Shown here in pieces: positions 22,929 through 41,759 of a stretch of 64,000 nt of DNA; position 1 is the first letter of the stretch, and each line of letters opens with the position of its first letter. Below the pieces are notes generated by a model. That model ran no database searches and was not told the origin of the DNA. It saw nothing but the letters and a program-made list of their open reading frames with translations. Both the position numbers and the translations under genes were made by a program. The DNA comes from Gemmatimonas phototrophica. Lineage in GTDB: Bacteria > Latescibacterota > UBA2968 > UBA8231. The stretch lies in NCBI GenBank assembly GCA_945861755.1, contig CAMAVQ010000004.1:15086-79085 (forward strand), written 5' to 3'.

Positions 22929-22999
22929 GGACCGGCATACTACTTGCCGGGAACTGGTCTTTGGGTGTATGTTCTGCTTTTCTTGGTGGAAGACGCCTC

Positions 23000-26365: not shown

Positions 26366-26402
26366 AACCGGCGGGGATCTGAATCCCTGCCGGTTTTTTT
26401 GT
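26366..26402 (+). terminator. Rho-independent terminator after the ABC ATPase gene
   Basis: AACCGGCGGGGA-tctgaa-TCCCTGCCGGTT followed by TTTTTTT. A 12-bp stem with one mismatch. Confidence 0.75.
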
Positions 26403-26434
26403 GGACGCCCTTTCGGTCGAAGCAATCCCTTTTT

Positions 26435-26450
26435 TCGACCTTTTGGTCGA
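26435..26450. promoter_or_regulatory. Perfect palindrome TCGACC-TTTT-GGTCGA, candidate enhancer (UAS) for a sigma54 activator
   Basis: 6-4-6 inverted repeat centred 109.5 bp upstream of the GG of the -24 element at 26552. An extra GGTCGA half-site lies at 26415-26420. Confidence 0.6.
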
Positions 26451-26550: not shown

Positions 26551-26565
26551 TGGCACCCCTTTTGC
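26551..26565 (+). promoter_or_regulatory. sigma54 -24/-12 promoter (TGGCAC-CCCTT-TTGC)
   Basis: Matches the consensus TGGCAC-N5-TTGC exactly in both conserved blocks and in spacing. It lies 41 nt upstream of ATG 26606. Confidence 0.7.
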
Positions 26566-26605
26566 CCCATCTCGACCACTGGTCATACATCGAGGAGGTG
26601 GTGCC

Positions 26606-27289
26606 ATGAGATTTTGCGGAGTGCTGATGGCGCTCTTGGCCTTGGCCTCCCCAGCTCTAGCCCAACCGGCAGCCCCCCCGCCCGCCAGTCAGCAGAACAC
26701 CCCTGACAAAAAAGAGGCGTTTCTAGGCTTTGTCGACGCCGATCGCGACGGCATCAACGACCGGTTCCGCGACGCCGAAGGCGACGGCCGAGACGACGTC
26801 AGCGGCAAGACCTACCCCCACCGCTTTGCCTTTGTCGACCAGAACAAGGACGGGGTCAACGATCTGTTTGTCGATCGCAACGGGGACGGGGTCAACGACC
26901 TGAATGCCGAATGCGGCCAGAGCGAGGATGGGGGCTGTGCCAATGTGGTGGACCAGGACCGCAACGGCGTCAACGATATCACCGGCCTGCGCTACACCAG
27001 GAATTCGCTGCGCGGCTACCGCTACGGACGGATCGCCGAAGAGTTGCGCCAGCCCCTGCCGCGTTTTGTGGACCAGGACGGAGACGGGATGAACGACCTG
27101 ATCCAGCGTTTCTTCAACCGCATGGAAATGGACGGTCATCCGCCCTTCGACCGCTTCATCGACGAAGACGGGGACGGCATCAACGACAACCGCCCCCACC
27201 CCCGGCCCTTTGACCGGGATGGGATGAACCACGGCGACCGGCCACCCCATCCCCGCCGGCCTCCGCCCAGGGGGGGACCGCATCGATGA
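26606..27289 (+). CDS. Secreted protein with seven EF-hand-like DxDxDG(x)ND calcium-binding loops and a Pro/Arg/His-rich tail
   Basis: ATG 26606 after GAGGAGG. Signal peptide MRFCGVLMALLALASPALA. Loops DADRDGIND, DAEGDGRDD, DQNKDGVND, DRNGDGVND, DQDRNGVND, DQDGDGMND, DEDGDGIND. Confidence 0.8.
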   Translation: MRFCGVLMALLALASPALAQPAAPPPASQQNTPDKKEAFLGFVDADRDGINDRFRDAEGDGRDDVSGKTYPHRFAFVDQNKDGVNDLFVDRNGDGVNDLNAECGQSEDGGCANVVDQDRNGVNDITGLRYTRNSLRGYRYGRIAEELRQPLPRFVDQDGDGMNDLIQRFFNRMEMDGHPPFDRFIDEDGDGINDNRPHPRPFDRDGMNHGDRPPHPRRPPPRGGPHR

Positions 27290-28377
27290 TCGTCCTGATC
27301 GCCGCCCTGCTCCTCAGCCTGAGCGCAGCCTTAGCCCAGCCCGCAGTGCGCCTCAATCTCTACTCCAGCTACACCGACAACCTGTTCCAGTCCAGCCAAC
27401 GCGATGCCGACTGGGTTGAGTTGCTGTACGTGGACCTGGACTGGGGATTGAGCGGCAACACGGGCCTATACTACACGGGCAATGCCAGCCTGTTCCGCCA
27501 ATACCGCGAGTTGTTCAACCACGCCCATGTCCTGGGCCTGAACTACGGCCGCGCCGGGCAGGCCGGCGAGTTGCATGCCGGCGCCACCCTCTCGACCCGT
27601 CTGGACCGCCGACGCTACGACTACCGCGATTTTGCCGGGGGCAGCGCCTTCGTCGAGGCCAAGCGCTATCTGCGGGAGGATCTGTTGGTGCGGACCGGCT
27701 ACACCCTGCGTTTGCAGGAGTACCTCAATGTCAGCCGTCAGAGCTACGTGGAGCAGAACGCCACGGCCCGGCTGACCCGCTTTTTGCCCAGCCGCACCAC
27801 GCTGGAGCTGCGCGCCGAACTGGGCGTCAAGTCGTACCTGAGGCGGGGTGAGGGAGAGTTCTTCGGCGCCGAGCGGGGACGGCATCTGGTCCAGGGCTTG
27901 GGCGGCCTGAAGCTGGCCCAGTCCCTGGGCGGCCGCACCGGCCTCCAGCTCGAATACACCCGCCAGCACAGCTTTTCGGGGCAGGGCCGCTTAGTACAGG
28001 TCGAAGATCTGTTCCAGATGCTCCGGGGCGATACCGCTGCCGCTGTCCTCTATTTCGACCTCAGCGCCCCCGTCTGCCCGGCGCCGCGTGGTCACCCGGA
28101 TCTGGCCGCTCTGGGTGGCTTCCACGGCATTGCTCAACAGATTCTGCACCGCCTGGACAAACTGGTCGGGGTCCAGTTGCCAGGTCCCCACCCCGCCGTA
28201 CTGGCGTTCCACCCGCAATCCCTTGGCCCGGGCCCGGGGTTCCTGGGCGGCCACTGCCTGTTCCACAATTTCCTCCAGATTCGCTGGGCGCCGCGCCAGC
28301 GCCGGCGGGCGGGCCAGGCTGAGAAAATCCCTGACGATGCGGTTGACCCGCCCCACCTCGCCGCGCACCACCTTTAG
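27286..28377 (+). CDS. Signal-peptide protein with outer-membrane beta-barrel-like strand pattern; native 3' end apparently missing
   Basis: ATGA overlap with the upstream gene. MIVLIAALLLSLSAALA, then alternating-strand sequence to about ...GLQLEYTRQHSFSGQG (about 27985). Beyond that the frame only stays open antisense to the kinase gene. Confidence 0.5.
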   Translation: MIVLIAALLLSLSAALAQPAVRLNLYSSYTDNLFQSSQRDADWVELLYVDLDWGLSGNTGLYYTGNASLFRQYRELFNHAHVLGLNYGRAGQAGELHAGATLSTRLDRRRYDYRDFAGGSAFVEAKRYLREDLLVRTGYTLRLQEYLNVSRQSYVEQNATARLTRFLPSRTTLELRAELGVKSYLRRGEGEFFGAERGRHLVQGLGGLKLAQSLGGRTGLQLEYTRQHSFSGQGRLVQVEDLFQMLRGDTAAAVLYFDLSAPVCPAPRGHPDLAALGGFHGIAQQILHRLDKLVGVQLPGPHPAVLAFHPQSLGPGPGFLGGHCLFHNFLQIRWAPRQRRRAGQAEKIPDDAVDPPHLAAHHL

Positions 28378-29874
28378 CAGACTTCGGTATTCCTGCTGGT
28401 CGCGCTGCGGCTCAAATTCGCGCTCCAGGCGCTGGGCGATGATGCCGATGGCGTTGAGCGGATTGCGCACCTCGTGGGCCACGCCCGAAGCCAGGGCGCC
28501 CATGGAGGCCATGCGCTCGCGGCGGCGCAGATCCGCCTCCAGGGCCGCCATTTCCGTCAGATCCTGGGCCACCACCACTACAGTCTCCACCTCGCCGCGG
28601 CTGTTGCGCACCAGGGAGGTGGACAGCGAGAGCAGGCGCTCCTGCCCCCCCACCAGATAGCGCTGCGCCCCTTCCTGGCCTTCGACGCTCTCGCGCAGGG
28701 CCCCTTCGACCGGGGGCAGGACCGCGCCCACCACCTCGGCGTAAGGGTGGCCTGTCGCCGCCGCTGCGGTGGTGCCGAAGAGCGTCTGAGCACTCTGGTT
28801 GAGCACCTCGATCCGGCCGGCGGTATCCATGGCCATCACCGCGTCGGTCATCTGCGCCAGGATGCGGCTGCTGTAGGTCTGCACCCGGGCGTAGGCCTCG
28901 TCGAGCAGGGCGTAGTTCTGGCGGATGGTCAGCACCCCGGCCCCGGCCGCCCCCAACACCGCCAGCAGGCCGGCTAACAGCACCAGCTGCAATTGATCCC
29001 GGTGCCTTTCGGCCTGCAGCGCCTCCACCGACAGCCCCACCCGCAACAGACCCAGGGGTTTGCCTTCGGGCGCAAAGGCCATGGCCGTCTCAAAGATCTC
29101 CTTGCCCTCGAATTGGGCAAGGCGCGAGACCGGCACCGAGCCGGCCAGGGCCCTGCTGAGGAAGGGATCGGTGGCGATCTTGCCCAGTTGGCCGATGCCG
29201 CTGGACCCCAGGAGAATGCCGGCCGAATCCTGCAGGGCGGCGAAGATCACCCCCTGGTTATCGCCGATCTCGCGGATCAGGCGGCCAATGCCGGCGGCCC
29301 GGCGCAGTTCGTGCAGGTACCGGGCCGAGGCCTGCACCAGGATAACCCCGCCTTCAGCAACCGGGGCCGCCACGGCGTAAAGTTCGGCTGCGTCGAGCAC
29401 CACTTGGTGAGAGAGGGCGGTGTGGTCGTACACCTCGGCCAATTCCTCCCACCACCAATCCAGCTCAAGACGGTCCATGGGCTGGGAACTGCTGCTGTAC
29501 CGCGGATACCCACGGCCATCGAAGACCTCGATACGCGCCAGGCTCTGTTCCTGGGTCACCTGGACCAGCAGCGCATCGTTCAGCCCCCGGTGCCCCTGGA
29601 GCCGGGCCAGGCCGCGGCCAATGCTCAGCAGGTGCTCCTGCACCAGCTGGTCTAGTTCCTCCTCGGCGCGCAGGGCGTTTTCGCCGGCCCGGGCCATGGC
29701 CTGCACCAGGGCGGCCGAGCTGTGTTCCAGGGTTTCGAGGGTGTTCTTGCGGGAGGTGTGTAACTCGTACCAGGCAAAACCTCCCAGCGCGGCGATCAGC
29801 ACCCCGGCCAGGGCAGCCAGGTATCCGGGCCGGAACGGGGTGGGCTTGAGGGCGGGAGAGAGGGTCCGGACCAT
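27991..29874 (-). CDS. Membrane sensor histidine kinase, ZraS/AtoS/NtrB-like (2 TM + periplasmic domain + PAS + HisKA), truncated inside HATPase_c
   Basis: H-box ALASGVAHEVRNPLNAI, N-box NLLSNAVEA, G1 box EDSGSGI. It then ends ...EHLEQIFDLY-stop, where IFDPFFTTK...GTGLGL (F and G2 boxes) is expected. Confidence 0.8.
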   Translation of the reverse strand: MVRTLSPALKPTPFRPGYLAALAGVLIAALGGFAWYELHTSRKNTLETLEHSSAALVQAMARAGENALRAEEELDQLVQEHLLSIGRGLARLQGHRGLNDALLVQVTQEQSLARIEVFDGRGYPRYSSSSQPMDRLELDWWWEELAEVYDHTALSHQVVLDAAELYAVAAPVAEGGVILVQASARYLHELRRAAGIGRLIREIGDNQGVIFAALQDSAGILLGSSGIGQLGKIATDPFLSRALAGSVPVSRLAQFEGKEIFETAMAFAPEGKPLGLLRVGLSVEALQAERHRDQLQLVLLAGLLAVLGAAGAGVLTIRQNYALLDEAYARVQTYSSRILAQMTDAVMAMDTAGRIEVLNQSAQTLFGTTAAAATGHPYAEVVGAVLPPVEGALRESVEGQEGAQRYLVGGQERLLSLSTSLVRNSRGEVETVVVVAQDLTEMAALEADLRRRERMASMGALASGVAHEVRNPLNAIGIIAQRLEREFEPQRDQQEYRSLLKVVRGEVGRVNRIVRDFLSLARPPALARRPANLEEIVEQAVAAQEPRARAKGLRVERQYGGVGTWQLDPDQFVQAVQNLLSNAVEATQSGQIRVTTRRRADGGAEVEIEDSGSGIAPEHLEQIFDLY

Positions 29875-29944
29875 GGCTTAAAGGTAGCGCCCCCCATCCT
29901 TCAGCGCACCCTGGCGCAGGGAGAAGAGCGCCGACTGCCAGGGG

Positions 29945-30814
29945 TTAGTGGCCTGCTTCTGTCGCCAGCACGACCATGACCCAAAGTTGCAGTGGCTGAG
30001 GCTGCACTCCACCTGAGGGTGGCCTTCTCCTGCCGCCACTCGGCATCATACCCTCTCCACGGCCGCCGCCCATACCCATGCCATCCGGCCCCAGGCCGCT
30101 ATCCCCTCTGCCCATGCCCTCCGGCCCCATGCCGCCGTCCCTCCGACTTCTCATCGCCCCCCGGCCCGGCACGCTCGTTTCAAAGGCAACACTCAACTGC
30201 TGGCCGGGTCGGACGCCCAGGCCATAGGGATGGTCCTGGTCGCGCCTGAGCGGAATTTTTAACTCGTAGACCAGCCGGTTGTCGACCTGCACCACCTTGA
30301 GATCAACCCCGGGTGCATCGGTATCCTTCATCTGGTGCCGCTCGCCCTTTCCGGGCCCGATGATCTCCATTTGGCCCAGCGCGATGGCCGGCGGAGGCTC
30401 CAGGGACGCCCGCTCCATCCGCTCCCCGCGGTCGGGTTGCGCTGCCTCATCGTCCTCGCCGGCAGCAAAGGGCTGGTCCCTGCCTCCTGTCGCATTTGGA
30501 AAGTGGATGCCGAAATTTCTCTGCCTTCCCCCGCTGACATCGAACCACACCGTGAAGCCCAGCCTCATCACCTGGGCCTGGGTGACTCGGTCGGCCGAGG
30601 CGAGGCGGAGATACAGGAAGTCCTCGTCATTGAGCAGGCTGACGACGGTATTGCCCGTGGCCACATAGGTCAGGGTGCCCTGCCATTCAGCGTCCCTGCC
30701 GTCGATGGTGATCTCGCGGGTCCGCCAGTTGCTGTCCATCTCGAGTTTGCCACATCCGGCAGCCGAAAGGACCAGTCCCCAACTGAGTACCAGTCGGGCA
30801 ACTGCGCTTTTCAT
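29945..30814 (-). CDS. Lipoprotein with Gly/Met/Arg-rich low-complexity C-terminal region
   Basis: 289 aa. Lipobox LSAAGC. The globular N-domain is followed by GGMGPEGMGRGDSGLGPDGMGMGGGRGEGMMPSGG. Confidence 0.75.
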   Translation of the reverse strand: MKSAVARLVLSWGLVLSAAGCGKLEMDSNWRTREITIDGRDAEWQGTLTYVATGNTVVSLLNDEDFLYLRLASADRVTQAQVMRLGFTVWFDVSGGRQRNFGIHFPNATGGRDQPFAAGEDDEAAQPDRGERMERASLEPPPAIALGQMEIIGPGKGERHQMKDTDAPGVDLKVVQVDNRLVYELKIPLRRDQDHPYGLGVRPGQQLSVAFETSVPGRGAMRSRRDGGMGPEGMGRGDSGLGPDGMGMGGGRGEGMMPSGGRRRPPSGGVQPQPLQLWVMVVLATEAGH

Positions 30815-30834
30815 TTTTCGCCTCCCCTTTCCGG

Positions 30835-30993
30835 TCAGGGGGTGATTTTCAGCGTTTCCCCTTCCACGCTCACCGCCACCTGGGCCAGGTTGCGGCGGGC
30901 CGGCCCCGTGAGCACCTTGCCCCTCAGGTCGAGAGGATAGGAGCCATCGGCGGTTGTCGTCAAGGATGCTCCGGTATTATTCGATCCGGTCAT
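30835..30993 (-). CDS. Possible 52-aa micro-ORF between the DUF3300-like gene and the lipoprotein gene
   Basis: ATG 30993 is preceded by GGAGGGGG and overlaps the upstream stop by 17 nt. Sequence MTGSNNTGASLTTTADGSYPLDLRGKVLTGPARRNLAQVAVSVEGETLKITP. The stop lies 20 nt before the lipoprotein ATG. Confidence 0.35.
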   Translation of the reverse strand: MTGSNNTGASLTTTADGSYPLDLRGKVLTGPARRNLAQVAVSVEGETLKITP

Positions 30994-31513
30994 CCCCCTC
31001 CGGCTCGTCGAGGCCGTTGAGGTCGTAATCGTAACGATCCGCACGGGATCGGGACACCTGCCGCACCTCTTTCCCTCTGGAGGCCACCCTGTCCGGGGGT
31101 GTTCTATCAGAGCGCCCCGGATACAGCTGGGCCAGCTGCTGCCGGACCTGGCCGGGGTCCTGGCGGTATGCGTCGCCCAGCAGGACGACCTGATCCAAGT
31201 CCTTTTCCAGCAGTTCCACGAATTCCGGGTACTGCAAGAGCAGACGCGCCTGATCCTGGGCCTGGGCAGGGTAGTTGGAGAGTAGGACAGTGGAATTGGT
31301 TTCGGCCCGCTGGTTTAACGCGGCGATTTCGGCCAGCACCCGGGCATCCCGGCGCACCCACTTGCGGGCGACGGGGCCGACCTCCGCGGGGTACTGGGCG
31401 AGGGTCTGACGGACGGCGCGTTGTTCGTCGCGCCCCCCGCGTTCCGCAGCCACGCCGACTCCGGGATGGGCCAGGAGTATCGTGGTAAGAGCCATACAAC
31501 TCAGCGTTTTCAT
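30977..31513 (-). CDS. Secreted protein with repeated (Q/N)YP motifs, DUF3300-like
   Basis: ATG 31513 lies 7 nt after GAGGAGG. Signal peptide MKTLSCMALTTILLAHPGVGVAA. Repeats LAQYPAEV, LSNYPAQA, LLQYPEFV, LAQLYPGR. Confidence 0.65.
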   Translation of the reverse strand: MKTLSCMALTTILLAHPGVGVAAERGGRDEQRAVRQTLAQYPAEVGPVARKWVRRDARVLAEIAALNQRAETNSTVLLSNYPAQAQDQARLLLQYPEFVELLEKDLDQVVLLGDAYRQDPGQVRQQLAQLYPGRSDRTPPDRVASRGKEVRQVSRSRADRYDYDLNGLDEPEGDDRIE

Positions 31514-31612
31514 GGGCACACCTCCTCGGTCAGGAGCCAGACGAGACCTCTAGTGGCGAAAAACCGGGACAGCCTCTTTGGTGTGCAGACTGTCCTGGCA
31601 CAATAATTGTTC

Positions 31613-32275
31613 CTAATCCGCGTTCTTGAGCTGACCCCAGGAGGTCGATTCGACCGCGGTGGCCGGCTCGTCATCCGACACGACCACCTTGGCGGCAGAC
31701 AGGGTGCTGGTGCCGGTGCTGCTGGTACCCGCAGCCGGTATCTCAGCTCCCGCCCTGGTGCATATACCAAAGGGGCCCGCAGCGCGCAGCGCGGCCAACT
31801 TAGCCTGCTGTTCTTCGGTGAGCAGGGCCTCAAAGGCGGTCTGGAACTCGGCGTGCAGGGCCTGGTGTTTGTCCCCGTACTCGGTGCGCAGGGCCGCGAA
31901 CTGGGTCTGCTGATCAGCGCTGAGATTCAACACTGGCCTCCGGTGATGCCGGCCTCCGCCGCTAGCGGCCGTTTCGGCCAGCACGGCCTGCTGCTCTGGG
32001 GTGAGCAGAGCGCTGACCGCGGCCTGCTCCTCGTCGCGCAGGGCCAGTTCTTTTTCCTCCAGGGTAGCCTTCAGGGCGTCGAGCTGGGCCTGCTGCTCAA
32101 TGCTCAACCCCAGCTGGGTACTCAACCCCACCCGAGCACCCTTCACCATACCCATACCCCGGCCCATACCCATGCCGCCCTGACGAGTGCCCCCCTTATT
32201 GCCGTGGGCGCTCGCGCCCATAGCAGAAGCGGCGATGACCAGCAGCGCGCCGGCCAGGATCCATGTCTTCTTCAT
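31613..32275 (-). CDS. Periplasmic Spy/CpxP/ZraP-family protein (four LTxxQ-type motifs, GMGMG tract)
   Basis: 220 aa. Signal peptide. GGMGMGRGMGM near the mature N-terminus. LSIEQQAQL, LTPEQQAVL, LSADQQTQF and LTEEQQAKL. An extra ~55-aa Ser/Thr-rich tail. Confidence 0.8.
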   Translation of the reverse strand: MKKTWILAGALLVIAASAMGASAHGNKGGTRQGGMGMGRGMGMVKGARVGLSTQLGLSIEQQAQLDALKATLEEKELALRDEEQAAVSALLTPEQQAVLAETAASGGGRHHRRPVLNLSADQQTQFAALRTEYGDKHQALHAEFQTAFEALLTEEQQAKLAALRAAGPFGICTRAGAEIPAAGTSSTGTSTLSAAKVVVSDDEPATAVESTSWGQLKNAD

Positions 32276-32368
32276 ACCCTTCCTCCTTGTGATTTGAATG
32301 AGTTGCAGGCGCCCGACAGCTTCGTTTGCCTGCCAGCCGCCTGACTCTTGCGGCTGAGCTATGGATTA

Positions 32369-32383
32369 GCAAAGGGGATGCCG
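32369..32383 (-). promoter_or_regulatory. sigma54 -24/-12 promoter (CGGCAT-CCCCT-TTGC on the minus strand) for the ZraP-like gene
   Basis: The minus strand reads GCGCGGCATCCCCTTTGCTAAT. GG and GC have the correct spacing. From the GG to the GC, 13 of 14 positions are identical to the promoter at 26551. It lies about 95 nt upstream of ATG 32275. Confidence 0.6.
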
Positions 32384-32483: not shown

Positions 32484-32499
32484 GCGACCGAATGGTCGA
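32484..32499. promoter_or_regulatory. Palindrome GCGACC-GAAT-GGTCGA, candidate UAS
   Basis: Same 6-4-6 architecture as 26435-26450. Its centre is 109.5 bp from the GG of the minus-strand -24 element, the same distance as at the other promoter. Confidence 0.6.
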
Positions 32500-32564
32500 G
32501 GGTGGAGGAGGGGGAGATGTTGTTTTTGTTGCGCTTCCCCGCCCATCGGGCTGCTACTTTACAT

Positions 32565-32580
32565 TCGACCAAATGGTCGA
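32565..32580. promoter_or_regulatory. Palindrome TCGACC-AAAT-GGTCGA, second candidate UAS
   Basis: Perfect 6-4-6 inverted repeat, centre-to-centre 81 bp from the 32484 site. It also lies 21 bp upstream of the -35 of the trp leader promoter. The flanks repeat as well (AATGGTCGAGGG). Confidence 0.55.
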
Positions 32581-32600: not shown

Positions 32601-32629
32601 TTGACAGGGGCAGGGGGGGCTTGTATCTT
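32601..32629 (+). promoter_or_regulatory. sigma70-type promoter for the trp leader (TTGACA-17 nt-TATCTT)
   Basis: TTGACA at 32601-32606, a 17-nt G-rich spacer, then TATCTT at 32624-32629. Confidence 0.55.
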
Positions 32630-32668
32630 GACTGCACCAAATTTTCACCCTGCATGAGGACTGAAGAC

Positions 32669-32761
32669 ATGAAACTCCGCTCTACCCATAGCAACCGTTG
32701 GTGGCGCTCCTGGCCATATACTTGGAGTATTGCAGGAGTGCGTCCACCCCACAGCGCATAG
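32669..32761 (+). CDS. trpL: trp operon leader peptide (30 aa, 4 Trp codons including a WW pair)
   Basis: MKLRSTHSNRWWRSWPYTWSIAGVRPPHSA. GAGGA lies 8 nt upstream of the ATG. A strong terminator follows, immediately before trpE(G). Confidence 0.75.
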   Translation: MKLRSTHSNRWWRSWPYTWSIAGVRPPHSA

Positions 32762-32785
32762 CAGCCGATTCACTGGAGCAAGCTA

Positions 32786-32826
32786 AAACCGCGGGCGCAC
32801 CTAAAGCGCTCGCGGTTTCTTTTTTT
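32786..32826 (+). terminator. Attenuator terminator upstream of trpE(G)
   Basis: AAACCGCGGGCGC-acctaaa-GCGCTCGCGGTTT (13-bp stem with one G-U pair) followed by CTTTTTTT. It ends 14 nt before ATG 32840. Confidence 0.85.
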
Positions 32827-32839
32827 GGGAGAGGATGAC

Positions 32840-34981
32840 ATGTATACCTATCTGACCGCCGGCGGCGTTGAGATCACCTGCGCCGTCGAGGAGTTGCCCG
32901 TCGCCGGGGCCCTGGACCAAGTGCTGGCGCGGCTGGATGCCCACCGCGGCGCGGTGTTTGCCAGCGGCTACGAATATCCGGGGCGGTACAGCCGCTGGGA
33001 CATCGGCTTCGTCGATCCGCCGGTGGAGCTGGTGGCCCGCAGCCGCGACTTCACCGTGCGCGCCCTCAACGAGCGGGGCCGGCCCCTGCTGCAGATCTTC
33101 CGCCAAGGGCTGGAGGGCCATGCCCACCTCAGCGCCCTGGAGGGCAGCGGGGACGAGTTGCGCGGCCAGGTGGCGCCCATGCCCACCCACTTCCCCGAGG
33201 AGGAGCGCTCCAAGCAGCCCACCATCTTCAGCCTGCTGCGCGCCCTGGTCCAGCAGTTCGGCGCCCCCGGCGAGCCCCACCTGGGCTTCTACGGGGCCAT
33301 GGGCTACGACCTGGTCTTCCAATTCGAGCCCATAACCCTGCGCCACCGGCGCCCGGCCCAACACCCCGACCTGCACCTCTTTTTGCCCGACGAGCTGATC
33401 GTCGTCGACCATCGCAAGGAGCAGGCCCTCAGGTACCGCTACGATTTCCGCCTCGGCCAACGCTCCACCCACGGCGTGGCCGGCGGCGGCCAAACCATCC
33501 CGCCGGTAAAGGGTGCCCCTTCCTCCCTGACGAGCGACCATGCCCCCGGCGAGTACGCCGACAAGGTGCGCCGGATCATCGAGGGCACCGGCCGGGGCGA
33601 CTTCTTTGAGGTCGTGCCCAGCCAGGTGCTCAGCGCCGGTTTTGCCGGGGCGCCCAGCGAACTCTTCGCCAATATCCGCCGCACCAATCCCAGCCCGTAC
33701 GAGTTCCTCATCAACCTGGGCCATGAGCAACTGGTGGGCGCCTCGCCCGAGATGTTCGTGCGGGTCGAAGGCACCCAGGTGGAGACCTGCCCCATCGCCG
33801 GCACTATCCGGCGCGGAGCTTCACCCATCGAGGACGCCGACCAGATCCTGACCCTGCTCAACTCGCAGAAGGACGAGGCCGAGTTGACCATGTGTACCGA
33901 CGTGGACCGCAACGACAAGGCCCGCGTCTGCAAGGCCGGCAGTGTGCGGGTGCTGGGCCGCCGGCTGATCGAGACCTACTCGCGGCTCATCCACACCGTG
34001 GATCACGTGGTGGGCGAACTGCGGCCCGGCTTCGACGCCTTCGACGCGCTGCTCTCCCACCTGTGGGCCGTCACCCTGACCGGAGCGCCCAAGCCAGCGG
34101 CCATGCAGATGATCGAGACGCTGGAAAACTCGGCGCGGCGCTGGTACGGGGGCTGTGTGGGCATGTTGCGCTTCAACGGCGACATCAACACCGGCATCAC
34201 CATCCGCACCGTCCACCTGGAGGGGGGAGAGGCCAGGGTGCGGGTGGGGGCCACTATCCTCTGCGATTCAGATCCCGACGAGGAAGAGCGGGAATGCCGC
34301 ACCAAGGCCGAGGCCTTCACCAACGCGGTGCTGGGGGCCCCGCAGCGGCAGCAAAGTGCGGCTGTCCTGCGTGCCACCGGCACTGGCAAGAAGGTGCTCT
34401 TTGTCGACAACCGCGACTCCTTTGTGCACACCCTGGGGGATTATGTGCGCCAGACCGGGGCCCAGGTCACCACCCTGCGGGCCGGCTTTCCCTATCACCT
34501 GCTCGACGAGATGAAGCCCGACCTGGTCTTCATCTCCCCAGGGCCGGGCACCCCCGAGGAGTTCGGGGTGCCCGAGCTGGTGCGCCAGTGTGTGCAGCGC
34601 CGACTGCCGGTCTTTGGGGTGTGCCTGGGGCTGCAGGGCATGGTCGAGGCTTTTGGCGGCAAGCTGGGGGTACTGGGGTACCCCATGCACGGCAAGAGTT
34701 CGGTGGTCGAATGCTCAGGAGAGGGTTTTCTCGAAGGCTTCCCCGCCCGCTTCGTGGCTGGCCGCTACCACTCCCTCTTCGCCGTGCCCGAGGCCCTGCC
34801 CGCCTGCCTCAAGGTGCGGGCCCACACCGAGGAAGGGGTGATCATGGCCGTGGAGCACGAGAGCTATCCGGCGGCGGCGGTGCAGTTCCACCCCGAATCC
34901 ATCCTCACCCTCAAGGAGGACCTGGGCCTCCGGCTCATCTCTCGGGTGATGGAAAGACTGGCGAAGGGAGCGAAGGCATGA
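32840..34981 (+). CDS. trpE: Anthranilate synthase, fused component I + glutamine amidotransferase component II, TrpE(G)
   Basis: The N-terminal ~500 aa are a chorismate-binding enzyme (FEVVPSQ, GASPEMFV, DRNDKARV, LTGAPK, RWYGG). The C-terminal ~200 aa are GATase-1 (FVDNRDSFVHTL, FGVCLGLQ, VQFHPES). ATG 32840 follows GGGAGAGGA. Confidence 0.92.
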   Translation: MYTYLTAGGVEITCAVEELPVAGALDQVLARLDAHRGAVFASGYEYPGRYSRWDIGFVDPPVELVARSRDFTVRALNERGRPLLQIFRQGLEGHAHLSALEGSGDELRGQVAPMPTHFPEEERSKQPTIFSLLRALVQQFGAPGEPHLGFYGAMGYDLVFQFEPITLRHRRPAQHPDLHLFLPDELIVVDHRKEQALRYRYDFRLGQRSTHGVAGGGQTIPPVKGAPSSLTSDHAPGEYADKVRRIIEGTGRGDFFEVVPSQVLSAGFAGAPSELFANIRRTNPSPYEFLINLGHEQLVGASPEMFVRVEGTQVETCPIAGTIRRGASPIEDADQILTLLNSQKDEAELTMCTDVDRNDKARVCKAGSVRVLGRRLIETYSRLIHTVDHVVGELRPGFDAFDALLSHLWAVTLTGAPKPAAMQMIETLENSARRWYGGCVGMLRFNGDINTGITIRTVHLEGGEARVRVGATILCDSDPDEEERECRTKAEAFTNAVLGAPQRQQSAAVLRATGTGKKVLFVDNRDSFVHTLGDYVRQTGAQVTTLRAGFPYHLLDEMKPDLVFISPGPGTPEEFGVPELVRQCVQRRLPVFGVCLGLQGMVEAFGGKLGVLGYPMHGKSSVVECSGEGFLEGFPARFVAGRYHSLFAVPEALPACLKVRAHTEEGVIMAVEHESYPAAAVQFHPESILTLKEDLGLRLISRVMERLAKGAKA

Positions 34982-35252: not shown

Positions 35253-36263
35253 ATGATCAAAGAAGCCATCCAGCAACTGATCGACCGGAAAAACCTCAGC
35301 CGCGAGACGGCCCGGCAGGTCATGGACCAGATCATGAGCGGCCAGACCACCGACGCCCAGATCGCCGGCTTCCTAGTGGCCCTGCGCTGCAAAGGCGAGA
35401 CCGCCGAGGAGATCGCCGGCTGCGCCGAAGCCATGCGCCAGAAGGCCACCCCCATCCACACCAGCCGCCAGCCCCTGATCGACACCTGCGGCACCGGCGG
35501 CGACGGGTCGGGCACCTTCAACATCTCCACCACTGTGGCCTTTGTGGCTGCCGGTGCCGGCCTAGGCGTGGCCAAACACGGCAACCGGGCCATGTCCAGC
35601 CAGTGCGGCTCGGCCGATGTACTCCAGGCCCTGGGCGTCAACGTGGAGATCAGCCCCGAGCAGGTGGGCGCCTGCCTCGACGAGGCCGGCATCGGCTTCC
35701 TCTTTGCCCCCAAATTGCACGGGGCGATGAAACACGCCATCGGCCCGCGCCGCGAGTTGGGCACCCGCACCGTCTTCAACGCCCTGGGGCCCCTGACCAA
35801 TCCAGCCGGAGCCCGCCGCCAGCTCATCGGCGTGTACAGCGGCAACCTCACCGAGAAGCTGGCCCAGGTGCTCAAGGCCCTGGGCTCGGAACGGGCCTTG
35901 GTGGTCCACGGCAGCGACGGCCTCGACGAACTCACCCTCACCGGCCCCTCCCAGGTAGCCGAGCTGAAGGAGGGCCAGGTCTCCACCTACGAGGTGCACC
36001 CCGAAGAATTCGGGCTCAAGACCGCCCCCGCCGCTGCCCTCAAGGGGGGCGACGCCCCGCACAACGCCCAGATTCTCAGCGCGGTGCTCAAGGGCGAGCA
36101 AGGGCCGCCGCGCGATATCGTGCTGCTCAATGCCGCTGCCGCCATCCTCGCCGGTGGCCTGGCCGCCGATCTGAACGAGGGTGTAGAACTGGCCCGTCAA
36201 TCCCTCGCCTCCGGCAAAGCCCTAGAGGCCCTGGAAAAGCTCAGGCAGGTGAGCAACCGGTGA
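35253..36263 (+). CDS. trpD: Anthranilate phosphoribosyltransferase
   Basis: 336 aa. DTCGTGGDG, FNISTT, KHGNRAMSS, GPLTNP. Confidence 0.93.
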   Translation: MIKEAIQQLIDRKNLSRETARQVMDQIMSGQTTDAQIAGFLVALRCKGETAEEIAGCAEAMRQKATPIHTSRQPLIDTCGTGGDGSGTFNISTTVAFVAAGAGLGVAKHGNRAMSSQCGSADVLQALGVNVEISPEQVGACLDEAGIGFLFAPKLHGAMKHAIGPRRELGTRTVFNALGPLTNPAGARRQLIGVYSGNLTEKLAQVLKALGSERALVVHGSDGLDELTLTGPSQVAELKEGQVSTYEVHPEEFGLKTAPAAALKGGDAPHNAQILSAVLKGEQGPPRDIVLLNAAAAILAGGLAADLNEGVELARQSLASGKALEALEKLRQVSNR

Positions 36264-37045
36264 ACGGCCGCGACATTCTCCAGGAGATCGCCACCTACAA
36301 ACGCGAGGTGGTGCAGCGCGACAAACACCTGCACTCCCTAGCCGACCTGCGCCACGCCGCTGCCGACGCCCCGCCCCCCCTCGACTTTGCCGACGCTCTG
36401 CGGGGGGAGGAAGTGGCACTGATCGCCGAAATCAAGAAAGCCTCCCCTTCCAAGGGCCTCATCCGCGCCGATTTCGACCCTGAGCGCATCGCCGCCACCT
36501 ATGCCGAGCAGGGGGCGCGGGCGCTTTCGGTGCTGACCGACGAGGCTTATTTTCAAGGGTGCAACGAGTACTTACAGGCGGCCCGCAGGGTAGCCGGGCT
36601 GCCGACACTGCGCAAGGACTTCACCCTGGACCCGTACCAGCTCTACCAAGCCCGGGTACTGGGCGCCGACGCAGTCTTATTGATCGTGGCATTGATGGAC
36701 GGCAGCCAGTTGGAGGACTTCCTCGGTCTGGCCGCCGAGTTGGCCCTGGCCGCCCTGGTGGAGGTACACACCCGCGCCGAGGCCGAGCGGGCCGTGCAGG
36801 CGGGCGCCGGGCTGGTGGGGGTCAACAACCGCGACCTCAAGACTTTCAAGACCACCCTGGACACCACCTTTGAACTCTTCCCCCTGCTTCCGGAGGGGTG
36901 CCTGAAAGTGAGCGAGAGCGGCATCAATACCCGCGCCGATGTGGAACGCCTGCAGGAAGCCGGCGCCGACGCCATCCTGGTGGGCGAAGCCCTGATGCGG
37001 GAGGCGGACATCGGCGCTAAAGTCAGAGAGCTGTTGGGACGATGA
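36260..37045 (+). CDS. trpC: Indole-3-glycerol-phosphate synthase
   Basis: GTG 36260 overlaps the trpD stop (GTGA). IAEIKKASPSKG, SVLTDEAYFQG, LRKDF, VEVH, GVNNRDL, SESGI. Confidence 0.9.
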   Translation: MNGRDILQEIATYKREVVQRDKHLHSLADLRHAAADAPPPLDFADALRGEEVALIAEIKKASPSKGLIRADFDPERIAATYAEQGARALSVLTDEAYFQGCNEYLQAARRVAGLPTLRKDFTLDPYQLYQARVLGADAVLLIVALMDGSQLEDFLGLAAELALAALVEVHTRAEAERAVQAGAGLVGVNNRDLKTFKTTLDTTFELFPLLPEGCLKVSESGINTRADVERLQEAGADAILVGEALMREADIGAKVRELLGR

Positions 37046-38025
37046 AAAAACGCGTTTTCTCGGGCATCAAACCTTCGGGCAGCCTGCACCTGGGCAACTA
37101 CCTGGGGGCTATCCGCAACTGGGTGGCCGACCAGCACCAATGCGAAAACATCTTCTGCGTAGTGGATCAGCACGCCCTCACCGTCGACTACGAGCCGGCT
37201 GCCCTGCGCCAGAACGTGCGCGAACTGGTGGGCCTGTACCTGGCCTGCGGCCTCGATCCCGCACAGTGCGCCCTCTTTGTGCAATCCCATGTGCCCGAGC
37301 ACACCGAGCTGGCCTGGCTCTTCAACTGTATCACCCCCATGGGCTGGCTGCAGCGCATGACCCAGTTCAAGGAAAAATCCGAGGACTTGCGCGAACAGGT
37401 CAGCGCCGGACTCTTCACCTATCCCACGCTGATGGCCGCCGACATCCTGCTCTACCAGACCCAGGAAGTGCCGGTGGGCGACGACCAGAAGCAGCATGTA
37501 GAACTGGCCCGCGACATTGCCCAGCGCTTCAACCATCTCTTCGGGGAGACCTTTGTGTTGCCCGAGCCGGTGATCCGCAAGGTGGCGGCGCGGGTGATGG
37601 GCCTGGACGATCCGAGCAAGAAGATGTCCAAGTCCACCACCAGCGACAGCCACGGCATCGGGCTGCTCGACCCGCCGGCCCTGATCCGCAAGAAGTTGAG
37701 CCGGGCCACCACCGACTCGCAGCGCGAGATTGTCTTCGACCGCGAGCGCCCCGGGGTCTTCAATCTGTTGACCATCTTTCAGGCCCTCTCCGGCCAGAGC
37801 CAGGAAGAGATCGCCGCCCACTTCGAAGACAAGGGCTACGCCCAGCTCAAGGGCGACCTGGCCGACCTGGTGGTCGCCACCCTCGAACCGATCCAGGCCC
37901 GCTATCGCCAGATCACCAGTGAACCCGAACAAATCGACCAGATCCTGGCCCAGGGCGTGACGCGGCTGCGCCCCCTGGTCGATGCCACCATGACCCGCGT
38001 GCGCCACGCCATGGGGCTGAGGTAG
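37042..38025 (+). CDS. trpS: Tryptophan--tRNA ligase
   Basis: 327 aa. FSGIKPSGSLHLGNYLG (HIGH-type) and KMSKS. ATGA overlap with trpC. Confidence 0.93.
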   Translation: MKKRVFSGIKPSGSLHLGNYLGAIRNWVADQHQCENIFCVVDQHALTVDYEPAALRQNVRELVGLYLACGLDPAQCALFVQSHVPEHTELAWLFNCITPMGWLQRMTQFKEKSEDLREQVSAGLFTYPTLMAADILLYQTQEVPVGDDQKQHVELARDIAQRFNHLFGETFVLPEPVIRKVAARVMGLDDPSKKMSKSTTSDSHGIGLLDPPALIRKKLSRATTDSQREIVFDRERPGVFNLLTIFQALSGQSQEEIAAHFEDKGYAQLKGDLADLVVATLEPIQARYRQITSEPEQIDQILAQGVTRLRPLVDATMTRVRHAMGLR

Positions 38026-38032
38026 GGCCGCC

Positions 38033-38296
38033 ATGGATCTGAGCGAATGGCGGGCCCGCATCGACGCGGTGGATCAGCAACTAGTGGACCTGCTCAACCA
38101 GCGCTTGCAGTACGTGCTGGAGATCGGCCGGCTCAAACGCGAGCACGGCCGGCCCGTCCAGGACCGCGAGCGGGAAAGAGCCATCCTCGAACGGCTCAGC
38201 GCCTACAACCAGGGACCGCTCAGCACCCAGGCCATCGAGGACCTCTTCAACCGCATTATGCAAGAAGCCCGCCACCTCGAAGAAGGGCAGGCATGA
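38033..38296 (+). CDS. Chorismate mutase, AroQ class (monofunctional)
   Basis: 87 aa. WRARIDAVDQQLVDLLNQRL...GRLK...VQDRERE pattern. Confidence 0.85.
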   Translation: MDLSEWRARIDAVDQQLVDLLNQRLQYVLEIGRLKREHGRPVQDRERERAILERLSAYNQGPLSTQAIEDLFNRIMQEARHLEEGQA

Positions 38297-38300
38297 CCTG

Positions 38301-39410
38301 TTGGAGGATCTAGTCTTCTTCAAGCGCATTGCCATCGTCGGGGTGGGGCTGATCGGCGGCTCCCTGGGCCTGGCCCTCAAGCGGCTGGGCCACCCGGCCC
38401 GCCTGGTGGGGGTCAGCCGGCCCGAGACCATCGCCCAGGCCCTGGAGCTGGGGGTCATCGATGAGGGCTTTGACTACCCCGATCTGGCCAAGGCCCTCGA
38501 CGGGGCCGACCTAGTCGTGCTGTGTACGCCCATCCAGCGCATCCTCTCCCTGTTAGAAGAAGTGGGCCGCTGCGCCGCCCCCGGTGCCCTGATCACCGAC
38601 GTGGGCAGCACCAAGCGCCGCATCGGGGCCCAGGCCGCCGCCCAGCTGCGCCCCGACCTTCACTTTGTGGGCGGCCATCCCATGGCCGGCTCCGAAAAGG
38701 CCGGGGTCAGCGCCGCCGATCCCTTCCTCTTTCAGAACGCCATCTACATCCTGGTGCCCGGCGGCGCAGTACCCGCGCCGCTCTACGGGGCCCTGGTGCA
38801 ATTGCTCAGGGAGGTGGGTGCCAAGGTGCTGGAACTCGACGCCGAAACCCACGACGAGGTGGTGGCCGCCATCAGCCACCTGCCGCAGATGATCGCCACT
38901 TCTCTAGTGGAAATGGTGGGCCGGCTCCACGAGGGAAAGGGCTATTTCCTCACCTTGGCCGCCGGCGGCTTCCGCGATTTGACCCGCATCGCCTCCAGCC
39001 CGTACGCCCCGGTGTGGCAGGACATCTGCCGCACCAACGAGGACCAGATCGGCCGCATGATCGACCAGTACATCGCCCTTCTTCAAGATATGCGCGGTCG
39101 TATTGCCGACCCGAGCCTGGGACAGGATTTCGCCTTTGCCAATCACACCCGCAACCGCATCCCGCGCGACGCCAAGGGTTTCATCCACACCCTCTCCGAG
39201 ATCCTGGTGGTGGCCGAGGACAAACCTGGAATCATCGGCCAGATCGCCCAGGCACTGGCGCACGAAAAAATCAACATCAACGACATCGAGGTGATGAAGG
39301 TGAGGGAAGGGGAGGGCGGCACCCTGCGCCTGGGATTCGACAGCCAGCCGGCCGCCGATCGCGCACTGGACGTGTTGGCCAGCCTGGGTTACCAGGCCAG
39401 GAGGCGCTAG
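38301..39410 (+). CDS. tyrA: Prephenate dehydrogenase with C-terminal ACT domain
   Basis: 369 aa, TTG start. IAIVGVGLIGGS, DVGSTK, GGHPMAGSE. ACT-like C-terminus ILVVAEDKPGIIGQIAQAL. Confidence 0.9.
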   Translation: MEDLVFFKRIAIVGVGLIGGSLGLALKRLGHPARLVGVSRPETIAQALELGVIDEGFDYPDLAKALDGADLVVLCTPIQRILSLLEEVGRCAAPGALITDVGSTKRRIGAQAAAQLRPDLHFVGGHPMAGSEKAGVSAADPFLFQNAIYILVPGGAVPAPLYGALVQLLREVGAKVLELDAETHDEVVAAISHLPQMIATSLVEMVGRLHEGKGYFLTLAAGGFRDLTRIASSPYAPVWQDICRTNEDQIGRMIDQYIALLQDMRGRIADPSLGQDFAFANHTRNRIPRDAKGFIHTLSEILVVAEDKPGIIGQIAQALAHEKININDIEVMKVREGEGGTLRLGFDSQPAADRALDVLASLGYQARRR

Positions 39411-40690
39411 TGGAACGCATTGTGCGCCCGGCGCGCAAGCTGGCCGGCGAAGCCACCGTCCCCGGCGAACTGGAGAGCGCCTCCCAGGCCCTGGTGCTGG
39501 CGGCCTTGGCCCAGGGCGAAAGTCGCATCCGCAATGCGCCCCTCTCCTGCCAGCGGCTGGTGGGGTTGCTGCGCGATCTGGGCATCGCCATCACCGAAGA
39601 GCCCGGAGTGCTGGTGGTCCAGGGACGGGGCCGGCTCGGCTTCAGCGCCCCTCGCGACACCGTGAACCTAGAAGGACTGGGCGAGGAAGCCCTATACTTG
39701 CTGGCCCTGCTCTGCGGCCAGGAGTTCAGCACCCGCGTGTATTTGGGCGAGGCCCAGGAAGAGGGCCGGCAGTTGCTAACCGCCCTCGCCCCGGCCGGGG
39801 TGGAGACCCGCAGCGAAACACAGCACCTGTGGCTGGTGGGCGGCGGGTCGCCCCTGCAACCCATCACCCATGCGGCCGCCGAACTGAGCGCCGGGATCAA
39901 AACGGCCCTCTTGGTGGCGGGCCTCTACGCCCAGGGCACCACGGTCCTGCGCGAATTGCTCAAGACCGGCGAACGGGCAGAGCGCCCCCTGCGCCAGTGG
40001 GGCGCCGAGGTGCTGCGCCGCCGGCAGGACAGCGAGGGCGAGTGGGCCCTCTCCATCGAAGGCGGGCAGGAGTTGCAGGCGCGGGAGCTGGAGATCGCCG
40101 GAGCCCCCCCCCTGGCTCTTCCTCTAGTAGTGGCGGCCCTGGGGCTGCGGCGTTCGGAGCTGCGCCTGCGGCGGCTGGCCCTGCGCCCGGGACGCCGCTT
40201 CTTTTTTGATCTGCTGCGCCAGCTGGGCGCCCCACTCACATTAGAAGAAAATGACGACGGCACCACCGACGTGCTGGTGCGCGCGGGCAAACTCAAACCC
40301 ACCCGCATCGCCGGACAGCGCGCCGAGAAATTACTCGACCAGGTGCCACTGCTGGCGGTGATGGCCACCCAGACCGAAGGGGAGTTTGTCATCCGCGACG
40401 TCGAGATGCTGCGCCAGGGCAAATCCGACTACCTGGCCCACCTGGTCCAACAGCTGCGCCTCATCGAGGCCAAGGTGGGCGAATTCCCCGAAGGCCTGGT
40501 CGTCGAGGGCGGGTACCCGCTCAAGGGCGCGGCCATCGATACCCGCGGGGATGCCGGCCTGTGTTTTGCCTTTGCCGTGGCCGGACTGTGGGCCGAGGGC
40601 GAGATGACCCTCTCTGACACCCGGGGCGTGGAGGAGGTCTTTCCGGCTTTCTTCCCGACCTTGGAAAAACTCCAGGAGCGCAAAAAATGA
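39410..40690 (+). CDS. EPSP-synthase (AroA) fold homolog lacking the canonical catalytic/substrate-binding motifs; probable pseudoenzyme or neofunctionalised paralog
   Basis: 426 aa. GTG 39410 overlaps the tyrA stop. It aligns along its full length with class II EPSPS, but the motifs are replaced: PGDKSISHR to PGELESASQ, GNAATGCR to EGLGEEAL, GDASLTKRPM to GEAQEEGRQL, TRDHTE to TGERAE, PGDPSS to AGAPPL, ELRVKESDR to EMLRQGKSDY, DHRIAM to GDAGLC. Confidence 0.75.
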   Translation: MERIVRPARKLAGEATVPGELESASQALVLAALAQGESRIRNAPLSCQRLVGLLRDLGIAITEEPGVLVVQGRGRLGFSAPRDTVNLEGLGEEALYLLALLCGQEFSTRVYLGEAQEEGRQLLTALAPAGVETRSETQHLWLVGGGSPLQPITHAAAELSAGIKTALLVAGLYAQGTTVLRELLKTGERAERPLRQWGAEVLRRRQDSEGEWALSIEGGQELQARELEIAGAPPLALPLVVAALGLRRSELRLRRLALRPGRRFFFDLLRQLGAPLTLEENDDGTTDVLVRAGKLKPTRIAGQRAEKLLDQVPLLAVMATQTEGEFVIRDVEMLRQGKSDYLAHLVQQLRLIEAKVGEFPEGLVVEGGYPLKGAAIDTRGDAGLCFAFAVAGLWAEGEMTLSDTRGVEEVFPAFFPTLEKLQERKK

Positions 40691-40827
40691 GGGGACTAAT
40701 TAAGCTGTGCGCGTTGGCCGCCGTGATTTTTGGCGGCGGAGTGGTGCTGATCCGCTGGCGCTACGGGGCCTCCTGGCGCGAGAGCTTGGGCATCGCCGAA
40801 CAATTCGTCGAGGATCTTTTGCCGTGA
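40687..40827 (+). CDS. 46-aa single-pass membrane micro-protein, translationally coupled between the aroA-like gene and aroE
   Basis: Not in the ORF track (under 60 aa). [50 protein letters not shown] overlap with the upstream stop (40687-40690) and GTGA overlap with the aroE start (40824-40827). Confidence 0.5.
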   Translation: MRGLIKLCALAAVIFGGGVVLIRWRYGASWRESLGIAEQFVEDLLP

Positions 40828-41690: not shown

Positions 41691-41759
41691 AAGCGGGTAC
41701 TCGCCGTCGCGCCAGTCTGCCATCGACCATCCCTATCACCTTCACCTGGAGACCCCCCC

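Follow-up and report, generated by a model that had tools for sequence, protein, structure and literature searches.

The window examined here is a stretch of 64,000 nucleotides (nt) from a metagenome assembly (GCA_945861755.1, contig CAMAVQ010000004.1, GTDB lineage Latescibacterota), and this report concerns seven open reading frames (ORFs) at positions 26606 to 32275, arranged in two convergent units behind two sigma54 promoters. An earlier annotation made without database searches (the sequence-only reading) had described them as an envelope-stress or metal-handling module. Our analysis indicates instead, with a probability of about 0.8, that the region holds the decaying remains of a two-component module under sigma54 control, a conserved module that is intact in relatives. 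All seven ORFs do exist where they had been placed, but the intact seven-gene module does not: the activator gene has been deleted, the genes for the sensor kinase and for an outer-membrane barrel are truncated, and two of the 'genes' are themselves remnants. The features that underlie this view are given below, with protein lengths in amino acids (aa); loci and assemblies compared with the window carry handles of the form L014.

26606 to 27289, plus strand: gene for a secreted, acidic protein of 227 aa with DxDxDG loops (the DxDxDG protein); appears intact
27286 to 28377, plus strand: barrel ORF, of which 27286 to 27992 is genuine barrel sequence (codons 1-236 of ~360) and the remainder is antisense to the kinase gene
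27992 to 27993: junction of deletion A; ~1.87-2.05 kb lost, the size varying by relative
27991 to 29874, minus strand: truncated sensor histidine kinase gene, 627 of ~672 aa
29945 to 30814, minus strand: lipoprotein gene, 289 aa, of an unnamed family; appears intact
30835 to 30993, minus strand (ORF to 31044): the '52-aa ORF', a Rieske-like gene remnant
30966 to 30999: junction region of deletion C; ~1.0 kb lost relative to L014, from the offsets of blastn blocks
30977 to 31519, minus strand: gene for a shortened secreted protein of 180 aa, derived from a 341-343-aa protein
31613 to 32275, minus strand: LTxxQ-family protein gene, 220 aa, secreted; apparently intact, at the head of the left-pointing operon

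Deletion A was located by blastn alignment, in which 27992|27993 of the window corresponds to 10707|12580 in L006, 10707|12597 in L014 and 10665|12713 in L013. Lost with it were ~124 codons at the 3' end of the barrel gene, the entire gene for a 453-aa regulator and, from the kinase gene, the final ~45 codons, including those for the ATP lid. The lost regulator is a response regulator of the NtrC/ZraR type, with the architecture REC-Sigma54_activat-HTH_8. A tblastn search of the 64-kb window revealed receiver domains only and no encoded sigma54 activator; the candidates among its ORFs of ~400-500 aa, a PAS kinase and a response regulator with an HDOD domain, were rejected as they are not sigma54 activators. 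A signalling pair unrelated to the locus lies on the minus strand at 1965-4507 and consists of a PAS histidine kinase (435 aa) and, after it, a response regulator of 412 aa that has HDOD and HD domains.

What remains of the kinase comprises a first transmembrane segment (TM1), a periplasmic domain of ~260 aa, a second segment (TM2), a PAS domain, HisKA and a partial HATPase_c, which covers Pfam profile positions 2-59 of 111 in the window as against 2-109 in L006. The protein ends ...IFDLY* (...DSGSGIAPEHLEQIFDLY*), directly after the G1 box, and the F and G2 boxes are absent. The orthologue in L006 goes on (...IFDLYFTTKAEGTGLGL...), its tail after the point at which the window protein stops being FTTKAEGTGLGL... 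Judged by its sequence, the window kinase is predicted to be unable to bind ATP. The sequence-only reading had described it as ZraS/AtoS-like with a sensor of ~270 aa; the cytoplasmic part is indeed AtoS/ZraS-like and ~260 aa do separate the hydrophobic segments, but the catalytic domain is cut.

On the other side of the junction, the start of the barrel gene overlaps the stop of the DxDxDG gene (ATGA). Homology of the ORF to the 360-aa relatives P0001 and P0005 ends at residue ~236-237, beyond which the reading is antisense kinase; its own stop has been lost and it reads through to 28377, with a GC content at third codon positions of 0.87 up to 27990 and 0.76 after. An AlphaFold 2 (AF2) model of the intact homologue P0005 has 16 strands (predicted local distance difference test, pLDDT, 86.8; predicted template-modelling score, pTM, 0.80). 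The window protein breaks off behind strand 11 and lacks the remaining five strands as well as the C-terminal beta-signal. The beta-barrel-like protein noticed earlier thus belongs to a genuine barrel family, but the copy in the window is cut at ~236/360 and carries an antisense tail.

The left-pointing operon has been eroded as well. Its fullest version is found in L014 (contig JADZBP010000019.1, a Candidatus Latescibacterota metagenome-assembled genome), which served as the reference for deletions B, C and D. There, the order is LTxxQ protein, 341-aa protein, DUF4136 lipoprotein, 168-aa Rieske-like lipoprotein, 298-aa lipoprotein, kinase and regulator, convergent with the genes for the DxDxDG protein and the barrel. 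Deletion B is an in-frame loss of 201 nt inside the Rieske-like gene (junction 30923-30932, with 10 nt of microhomology), which took the Rieske core. Deletion C (~1.0 kb, 30966-30999) took the 5' part of the same gene and all of the DUF4136 gene and reached into the 341-aa gene, which lost its final ~90 codons; tblastn of the DUF4136 protein and of p109 against the window gave no match. Deletion D, in frame and of 234 nt, excised a 78-codon internal repeat unit from the 341-aa gene near 31383-31396.

Two of the ORFs consequently take on a different identity. The 180-aa protein is what is left of a 341-343-aa ancestor without the internal repeat unit and the C-terminal ~90 aa, which are rich in Tyr, Trp and Pro: with the L006 protein p343 as tblastn query, residues 110-258 and 1-105 align (the latter to the overlapping part of the ORF) and none beyond 258. 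The sequence-only reading had called it DUF3300-like, an assignment that falls away, as the score against DUF3300 (PF11737) is 15.2 bits, below the cut-off of 25, and the full-length L014 orthologue gives no match at E<=0.05. Similarly, the '52-aa ORF' is not a gene in its own right but a fragment of the Rieske-like gene, of which it keeps ~45 residues, all outside the core; the N-terminus has also been lost. The L014 orthologue (15468-15974) matches Pfam Rieske (PF00355) at 6.8e-9, with 36 bits against a cut-off of 20.3. In that protein, box I reads CTHEGC and box II reads SPGHG instead of CPxHG, and it may lack normal 2Fe-2S cluster binding.

Since the source is a metagenome assembly, it could be argued that 27992|27993 is a mis-join and that the real genome carries a complete locus. 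We find this scarcely credible. The junction is identical in L001, L002 and L005, which are 99.94-100% identical to the window and derive from assemblies of different samples made by different pipelines; L028 and L029 contain the same 627-aa kinase or its start. Alignment across the junction revealed no repeat that might invite a mis-join. Moreover, the kinase remnant has evolved abnormally in this lineage. Lineage-specific non-synonymous and synonymous changes (N/S) were counted leaving out LTXXQ and TrpEG, for which the ORF is wrong or partial in some relatives. For the kinase, the counts were 30/40 in the window, 4/41 in L006, 5/29 in L014 and 13/26 in L013, and the window differs from L006 and L014 taken together (9/70) with p=1.4e-5 (Fisher). 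The flanking ABC and FtsX genes of the window have a normal N/S of 5/33. Because 30/40 stands against 9/70 in the relatives and 5/33 in the flanks, we conclude that the kinase remnant has drifted under relaxed selection.

An assembly error is equally hard to reconcile with L025 (GCA_009691525.1), the closest relative, whose flanking genes are 94% identical to those of the window and whose copy of the locus bears both shared and independent deletions. It has exactly the same junction in the Rieske-like gene, and since this is shared, decay must have begun in the common ancestor of L025 and the window. A larger deletion of its own fuses codon ~113 of the DxDxDG gene to codon ~59 of the kinase gene. 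In addition, L025 is without the 341-aa gene, the reading frame of its LTxxQ gene is interrupted close to the start, and the -12 GC of its LTxxQ promoter is mutated to CC. The window appears from these comparisons to be an intermediate stage of module loss in its clade. Together, the loci provide a step-wise record of decay, from the intact L014, through the shared deletion in the Rieske-like gene, to the window, which lost the regulator and the tails of kinase and barrel, and to L025, which lost almost everything.

What was lost can be read from the relatives, the intact form being found in the Latescibacterota contigs L006, L013 and L014 and in more distant loci. We compared 17 related loci, whose source labels are Latescibacterota, Gemmatimonadetes, Planctomycetota or no phylum. 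The DxDxDG gene, the barrel gene, the kinase gene and the sigma54 regulator gene occur together in 12 of them, so that conservation of gene neighbourhood, which had been put forward as a check, is borne out. The kinase match extends over approximately the full length, including the periplasmic domain, in 11 of these 12; the kinase of L024 is shorter and only its catalytic core aligns. The exceptions are L015, without a detected DxDxDG gene; L012, a DxDxDG-barrel pair without two-component genes; L021, with barrel and kinase only; the decayed L025; and L022, a Chlorobium contig that has the two-component genes and a barrel match of 22% identity, which disappeared under a stricter search. The units are convergent in L006, L008, L011, L016-L018 and L023, co-directional in L010, L015, L019 and L024, and 4 kb apart in L020. 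That the linkage has survived such rearrangement argues for a functional unit.

Other members of the module come and go. An LTxxQ-like gene is present in 5 of the 12 complete loci. It heads the DxDxDG-barrel operon in L008, L011, L017 and L023; in L015 and L019 an LTxxQ-like homologue precedes the barrel gene, and in L019 the DxDxDG gene sits after the regulator gene. Homologues of the 289-aa lipoprotein lie 3' of a gene for an extracytoplasmic function (ECF) sigma factor in L008 (2975-4736, 4736-4970) and L011 (801-2810). In L008, the ECF operon is preceded by a sigma54 promoter of its own (GGCACAGTCTTTGCA, minus strand) together with two copies of the palindrome described below, and L011 has one palindrome at the equivalent position; in those relatives, the sigma54 two-component system may control an ECF sigma factor.

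Both sigma54 promoters on which the sequence-only reading had relied are present and are kept at orthologous positions. The elements are:

26551 to 26566, plus strand: sigma54 promoter 1, TGGCACCCCTTTTGCC, TGGCAC-N5-TTGC, 40 nt 5' of the DxDxDG-protein gene
32368 to 32383, minus strand: sigma54 promoter 2, CGGCATCCCCTTTGCT, CGGCAT-N5-TTGCT, ~93 nt 5' of the LTxxQ gene
26406 to 26449: enhancer region (upstream activating sequence, UAS) of promoter 1, with palindrome copies at 26436-26449 (exact, CGACCTTTTGGTCG) and 26406-26419 (one mismatch)
32485 to 32579: enhancer (UAS) region of promoter 2, with exact palindromes CGACCGAATGGTCG at 32485-32498 and CGACCAAATGGTCG at 32566-32579, 81 nt apart

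Each promoter has GG at -24 and GC at -12 in the canonical GG-N10-GC spacing, with a gene downstream. Promoter 1 is kept in L006, L007, L013, L014 and L025, and promoter 2 is identical in L006 and L014. The motif count is weak evidence when taken alone: GGCAY-N5-TTGC has 5 matches in the 64 kb against 1.83 expected, and 4 of 100 shuffles reached five. The palindrome is CGACC-N4-GGTCG. Of only four exact matches in the 64 kb, three, with A/T-rich spacers, are found ~105-185 nt 5' of the two promoters. Allowing up to one mismatch, the window has 11 matches against 4.3 expected, a number that none of 100 shuffles reached.

The palindromes, too, are conserved. The palindrome of promoter 1 is also found 5' of the orthologous gene in L013 and L014; those of promoter 2 recur as identical sites in L006 and L025, while L008 and L023 have equivalent pairs. 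Indeed, TGGCAC-N5-TTGC promoters together with palindromes precede the target operons in relatives, even in L012, which has no adjacent kinase or regulator. This layout is that expected of enhancer sites for an NtrC-type activator, and it suggests that the regulator binds the CGACC-N4-GGTCG palindromes. A further sigma54-like element, CGGCATACTACTTGCC, occurs at 22933-22948 (plus strand) of the window, directly 5' of a gene for an S41 (CtpB-like) peptidase; it is identical in L025 (15088, minus strand), and a pattern search gave no match in L006, L013 and L014.

We propose that the intact module would work as follows. A periplasmic signal would be sensed by the ~260-aa domain of the kinase, which would then phosphorylate the NtrC/ZraR-type enhancer-binding regulator. 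The regulator would bind CGACC-N4-GGTCG sites ~100-200 nt 5' of the sigma54 promoters and activate the sigma54 holoenzyme. The induced set would comprise an LTxxQ protein of the Spy/CpxP/ZraP family, acting as chaperone or modulator, and the acidic DxDxDG protein (7-9 loops) with its translationally coupled 16-strand barrel. Lineage-specific additions would be lipoproteins (of the 289-aa, Rieske-like and DUF4136 kinds) and the ECF sigma factor, and the outcome would be a stress response with ZraP-like feedback. By analogy, this is most likely a response to envelope or divalent-cation stress. In the window, such a circuit would have been broken when deletion A took the regulator, the region of the kinase around the ATP lid and the last five strands of the barrel, with three further deletions destroying the Rieske-like, DUF4136 and 341-aa genes. 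Promoters of the sigma54 class need an activator to fire. Since the activator is gone, the surviving DxDxDG, lipoprotein and LTxxQ genes are probably not expressed, except if a paralogous activator from another part of the genome acts on the same enhancer.

Several observations weigh against a remnant, and some of them would fit the idea that the locus has been rewired and still functions, the DxDxDG, LTxxQ and lipoprotein genes being driven by a paralogous enhancer-binding protein while only the dedicated kinase, the regulator and the barrel were given up. The promoters and all three palindromes of the window are perfect and identical to those of the intact, regulator-bearing relatives. There are no frameshifts in the surviving ORFs, from which it follows that the loss may be recent or that the genes are still used. 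Neither the barrel remnant nor the DxDxDG gene exhibits an excess of non-synonymous change; for the latter, N/S is 8/16 in the window and 2/8 to 9/11 in relatives, with no sign of relaxed selection. L012 illustrates that a DxDxDG-barrel pair could be driven in trans by a regulator that is not adjacent. Two further points count against the scheme set out above rather than for rewiring: no His or Cys is found among the conserved positions in the periplasmic domain of the kinase, and an AF2 model of the DxDxDG protein, from a 40-sequence alignment, reached a pLDDT of only 57.5 and was unusable.

Nevertheless, we consider a rewired, functional locus unlikely. The 64-kb window contains no sigma54 activator; the barrel, which is the constant partner of the DxDxDG protein in relatives, has been destroyed; and L025 has deleted half of the DxDxDG gene and mutated the LTxxQ promoter, as expected of genes that are of no use. 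Less probable by far is that the seven ORFs form a self-contained envelope-stress or metal-handling module that works as encoded. The ORFs, their signal peptides, the two sigma54 promoters, the LTxxQ motifs and the DxDxDG loops are all there, but such a module would have a barrel cut at 236/360, a kinase without an ATP lid, no regulator and two gene fragments among its seven members, and it is refuted by the alignments to L006, L013 and L014. A decaying remnant remains the reading that we favour.

A Pfam and NCBIfam scan of all seven ORFs yielded true assignments only for the kinase and, marginally, for LTXXQ. For the effector components (DxDxDG protein, barrel and lipoprotein), neither Pfam nor NCBIfam nor the source records offer a family or a name. 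A literature search on the module in Latescibacteria and on ZraP-like systems found no description of the module or of the extra components. The suggestion that some components lie outside any described system is upheld as far as families, names and literature go.

The 227-aa DxDxDG protein consists of a signal peptide, seven loops and a basic, Pro-rich tail. The seven EF-hand-like loops of the sequence-only reading were recovered as DxDxDG-type loops at aa 44, 56, 78, 90, 116, 156 and 186. The motif, D-x-[DN]-x-[DN]-G-x-x-[DN] (DxDxDG(x)ND), occurs seven times in the window protein and 8-9 times in the family consensus, and its Asp, Asn and Gly positions are near-invariant across the family alignment. 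The family numbers at least 138 clusters at 90% identity, all 'hypothetical' and none with a Pfam domain. Repetition of the loop motif is a feature shared with EF-hand, dockerin and thrombospondin type 3 (TSP3) proteins, but none of the corresponding Pfam or NCBIfam repeat models matched at E<=0.1 except MtsD (thrombospondin-type-3), at E=0.095, and the flanking helices of an EF-hand are lacking in the window protein, as far as a model of low confidence can tell. The loops are putative cation-binding sites, perhaps for calcium. In L010 (12799-13552), the sole exact TGGCAC-N5-TTGC lies after the regulator gene, 5' of a gene for a different protein, of 223 aa and with DxDGDG repeats; this case hints that Asp-rich repeat proteins of several kinds have been drawn into the regulon.

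The LTxxQ protein was correctly recognised by the sequence-only reading, although only marginally above the Pfam threshold: it scores 25.5 bits against LTXXQ (PF07813), with a cut-off of 24.3, and its L014 orthologue scores 33.4 bits. A GMGMGRGMGM stretch comes after the signal peptide, the L[ST]xxQ motif occurs four times, and the protein as a whole is a duplicated unit that carries a long C-terminal extension rich in Ser, Thr and Ala. The gathering score, the signal peptide and the L[ST]xxQ motifs liken it to the Spy/CpxP/ZraP family; it differs from CpxP in the narrow sense, for which the NCBIfam model gives 16.2 bits against a cut-off of 148, and it had no sequence match to any solved structure.

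In the 289-aa lipoprotein, a variable, Gly-rich linker joins a conserved N-terminal domain of ~210 aa to a last strand that is again conserved. The family of this protein comprises ~100 clusters, none with a Pfam domain or a name, and no meaningful match was found among the sequences of solved structures. The sequence-only reading had drawn attention to a Gly/Met-rich tail. The lipobox Cys is invariant in the family alignment and the tail is Gly-rich, but Met is not conserved in the linker, and the tail was rejected as a metal site. The metal or calcium signal that had been suggested for the locus thus finds no support in this tail or in the sensor domain with its lack of conserved His and Cys. 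The kinase sensor domain likewise gave no meaningful match to the sequences of solved structures.

The barrel family is large, with 779 representatives (50% identity level) at E<=1e-3 among 1.84 billion sequences. A PDB fold search with the barrel model found as nearest structures the generic 16-18-strand monomeric channels OprD/Occ, AlgE and CymA at a template-modelling score of ~0.5, and a family assignment on this basis was dropped; a profile search against the sequences of solved structures gave no meaningful match. A more specific pointer came from SlipAM (PF04575), which 10 of 54 distant members of the family match at E<=0.01 (best 3.1e-7), one of them, P0300, exceeding the cut-off (30.1 vs 22 bits). 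The window barrel and its close relatives, including P0005, give no SlipAM match. Slam/DUF560 proteins constitute type XI secretion, and their genes adjoin cargo genes much as the barrel gene always lies beside that of a secreted partner. In contrast to Slam, however, the matches in the barrel family cover only the C-terminal third of the SlipAM profile, the P0005 model has 16 strands and no N-terminal periplasmic TPR domain, and the DxDxDG partner presumably has no beta-barrel cargo domain of the sort found in known Slam substrates. That the barrel might handle its neighbour as cargo is a lead, and does not amount to membership of Slam.

If these strands are drawn together, a tentative picture emerges, on balance rather doubtful, of an envelope system, so far undescribed, that Latescibacterota would share with neighbouring candidate phyla. 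In it, a ZraSR-like pair would sense periplasmic or cation stress through the new ~260-aa domain and induce a Slam-related 16-strand barrel that exports or anchors its translationally coupled partner, the polyanionic DxDxDG protein with 7-9 calcium loops, together with an LTxxQ chaperone. If true, sigma54 would here control either a cargo-translocon pair of a new kind or a cation buffer at the cell surface, and the window and L025 would be natural knock-outs, implying that the system is dispensable in some habitats.

The locus is set in a region (26.3-32.6 kb) of ~65% GC. It is flanked to the left by an operon of S41 peptidase and FtsX/ABC genes and to the right by an aromatic amino-acid operon led by trpEG. 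The left edge of the locus is marked by one further feature:

26366 to 26395, plus strand: intrinsic terminator found by a terminator scan, 13 pairs then a T-run, 3' of the upstream ABC-transporter gene

On the right, trpEG is preceded by a classical trp attenuator (32601-32840). This has a sigma70-like promoter, TTGACA-17-TATCTT (32601-32629), a leader peptide of 30 codons, MKLRSTHSNRWWRSWPYTWSIAGVRPPHSA (~32670-32761), with four Trp including a WW pair, and a strong terminator hairpin (32786-32818) directly before the start of trpEG. The operon continues 3' of trpEG (35253-42000, from the gene calls of L001) and includes a tRNA-synt_1b gene for a Trp- or Tyr-tRNA synthetase of 327 aa, between trpC and the block of chorismate mutase, prephenate dehydrogenase and EPSP synthase genes.

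A practical consequence is that cloning or modelling these ORFs from the window would mean working with pseudogenes, a dead locus having been hidden behind the seven-gene picture. The module is better followed in intact genomes, such as L014, L006 and the 4.3-Mb contig behind L023. What the comparison provides is a defined, unnamed module of poorly known phyla, made up of a kinase, a sigma54 regulator, a poly-DxDxDG protein, a 16-strand barrel and, in some lineages, an LTxxQ-like gene. It also provides an explicit predicted site, CGACC-N4-GGTCG, which can be used for regulon prediction in other genomes.

The system that comes closest is ZraPSR of E. coli and Salmonella, in which ZraR drives the sigma54 promoters of zraP and zraSR in a zinc-dependent envelope-stress response (PMC4987338). 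Over its full length, the regulator of L006 shares 49% identity with E. coli ZraR, and the DHp-CA core of the kinase in the intact relatives shares 42% with ZraS. As in ZraPSR, a gene for an LTxxQ-family periplasmic protein lies behind a sigma54 promoter and the system is apparently autoregulated, and both ZraP and the LTxxQ protein of the window contain a GMGMG-type stretch. The ZraPSR-like logic that the sequence-only reading had perceived is thus genuine for the LTxxQ protein, the sensor kinase, sigma54 and, in relatives, the regulator, but it no longer holds in the window itself.

The differences are nevertheless considerable. Against the NCBIfam model of ZraS (NF007688), the window kinase scores 135.8 bits with a cut-off of 479, over residues 443-627 only, and against AtoS it scores 205 bits with a cut-off of 646. 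It has a cytoplasmic PAS domain, and its ~260-aa periplasmic domain is longer than the ZraS sensor, to which it bears marginal likeness (E ~0.01-0.03). The LTxxQ protein is twice the length of ZraP, has four motifs and is barely alignable with it (E~0.01). The regulon of the relatives adds a poly-DxDxDG protein, an outer-membrane barrel and lipoproteins, and the regulator is absent from the window. On these comparisons, ZraPSR appears to be the closest analogue, while membership of ZraPSR fails. The logic of the circuit would accordingly count as known, and what appears to be new is a module of the ZraPSR type, with uncharacterised effectors, that has been kept in the relatives of the window.

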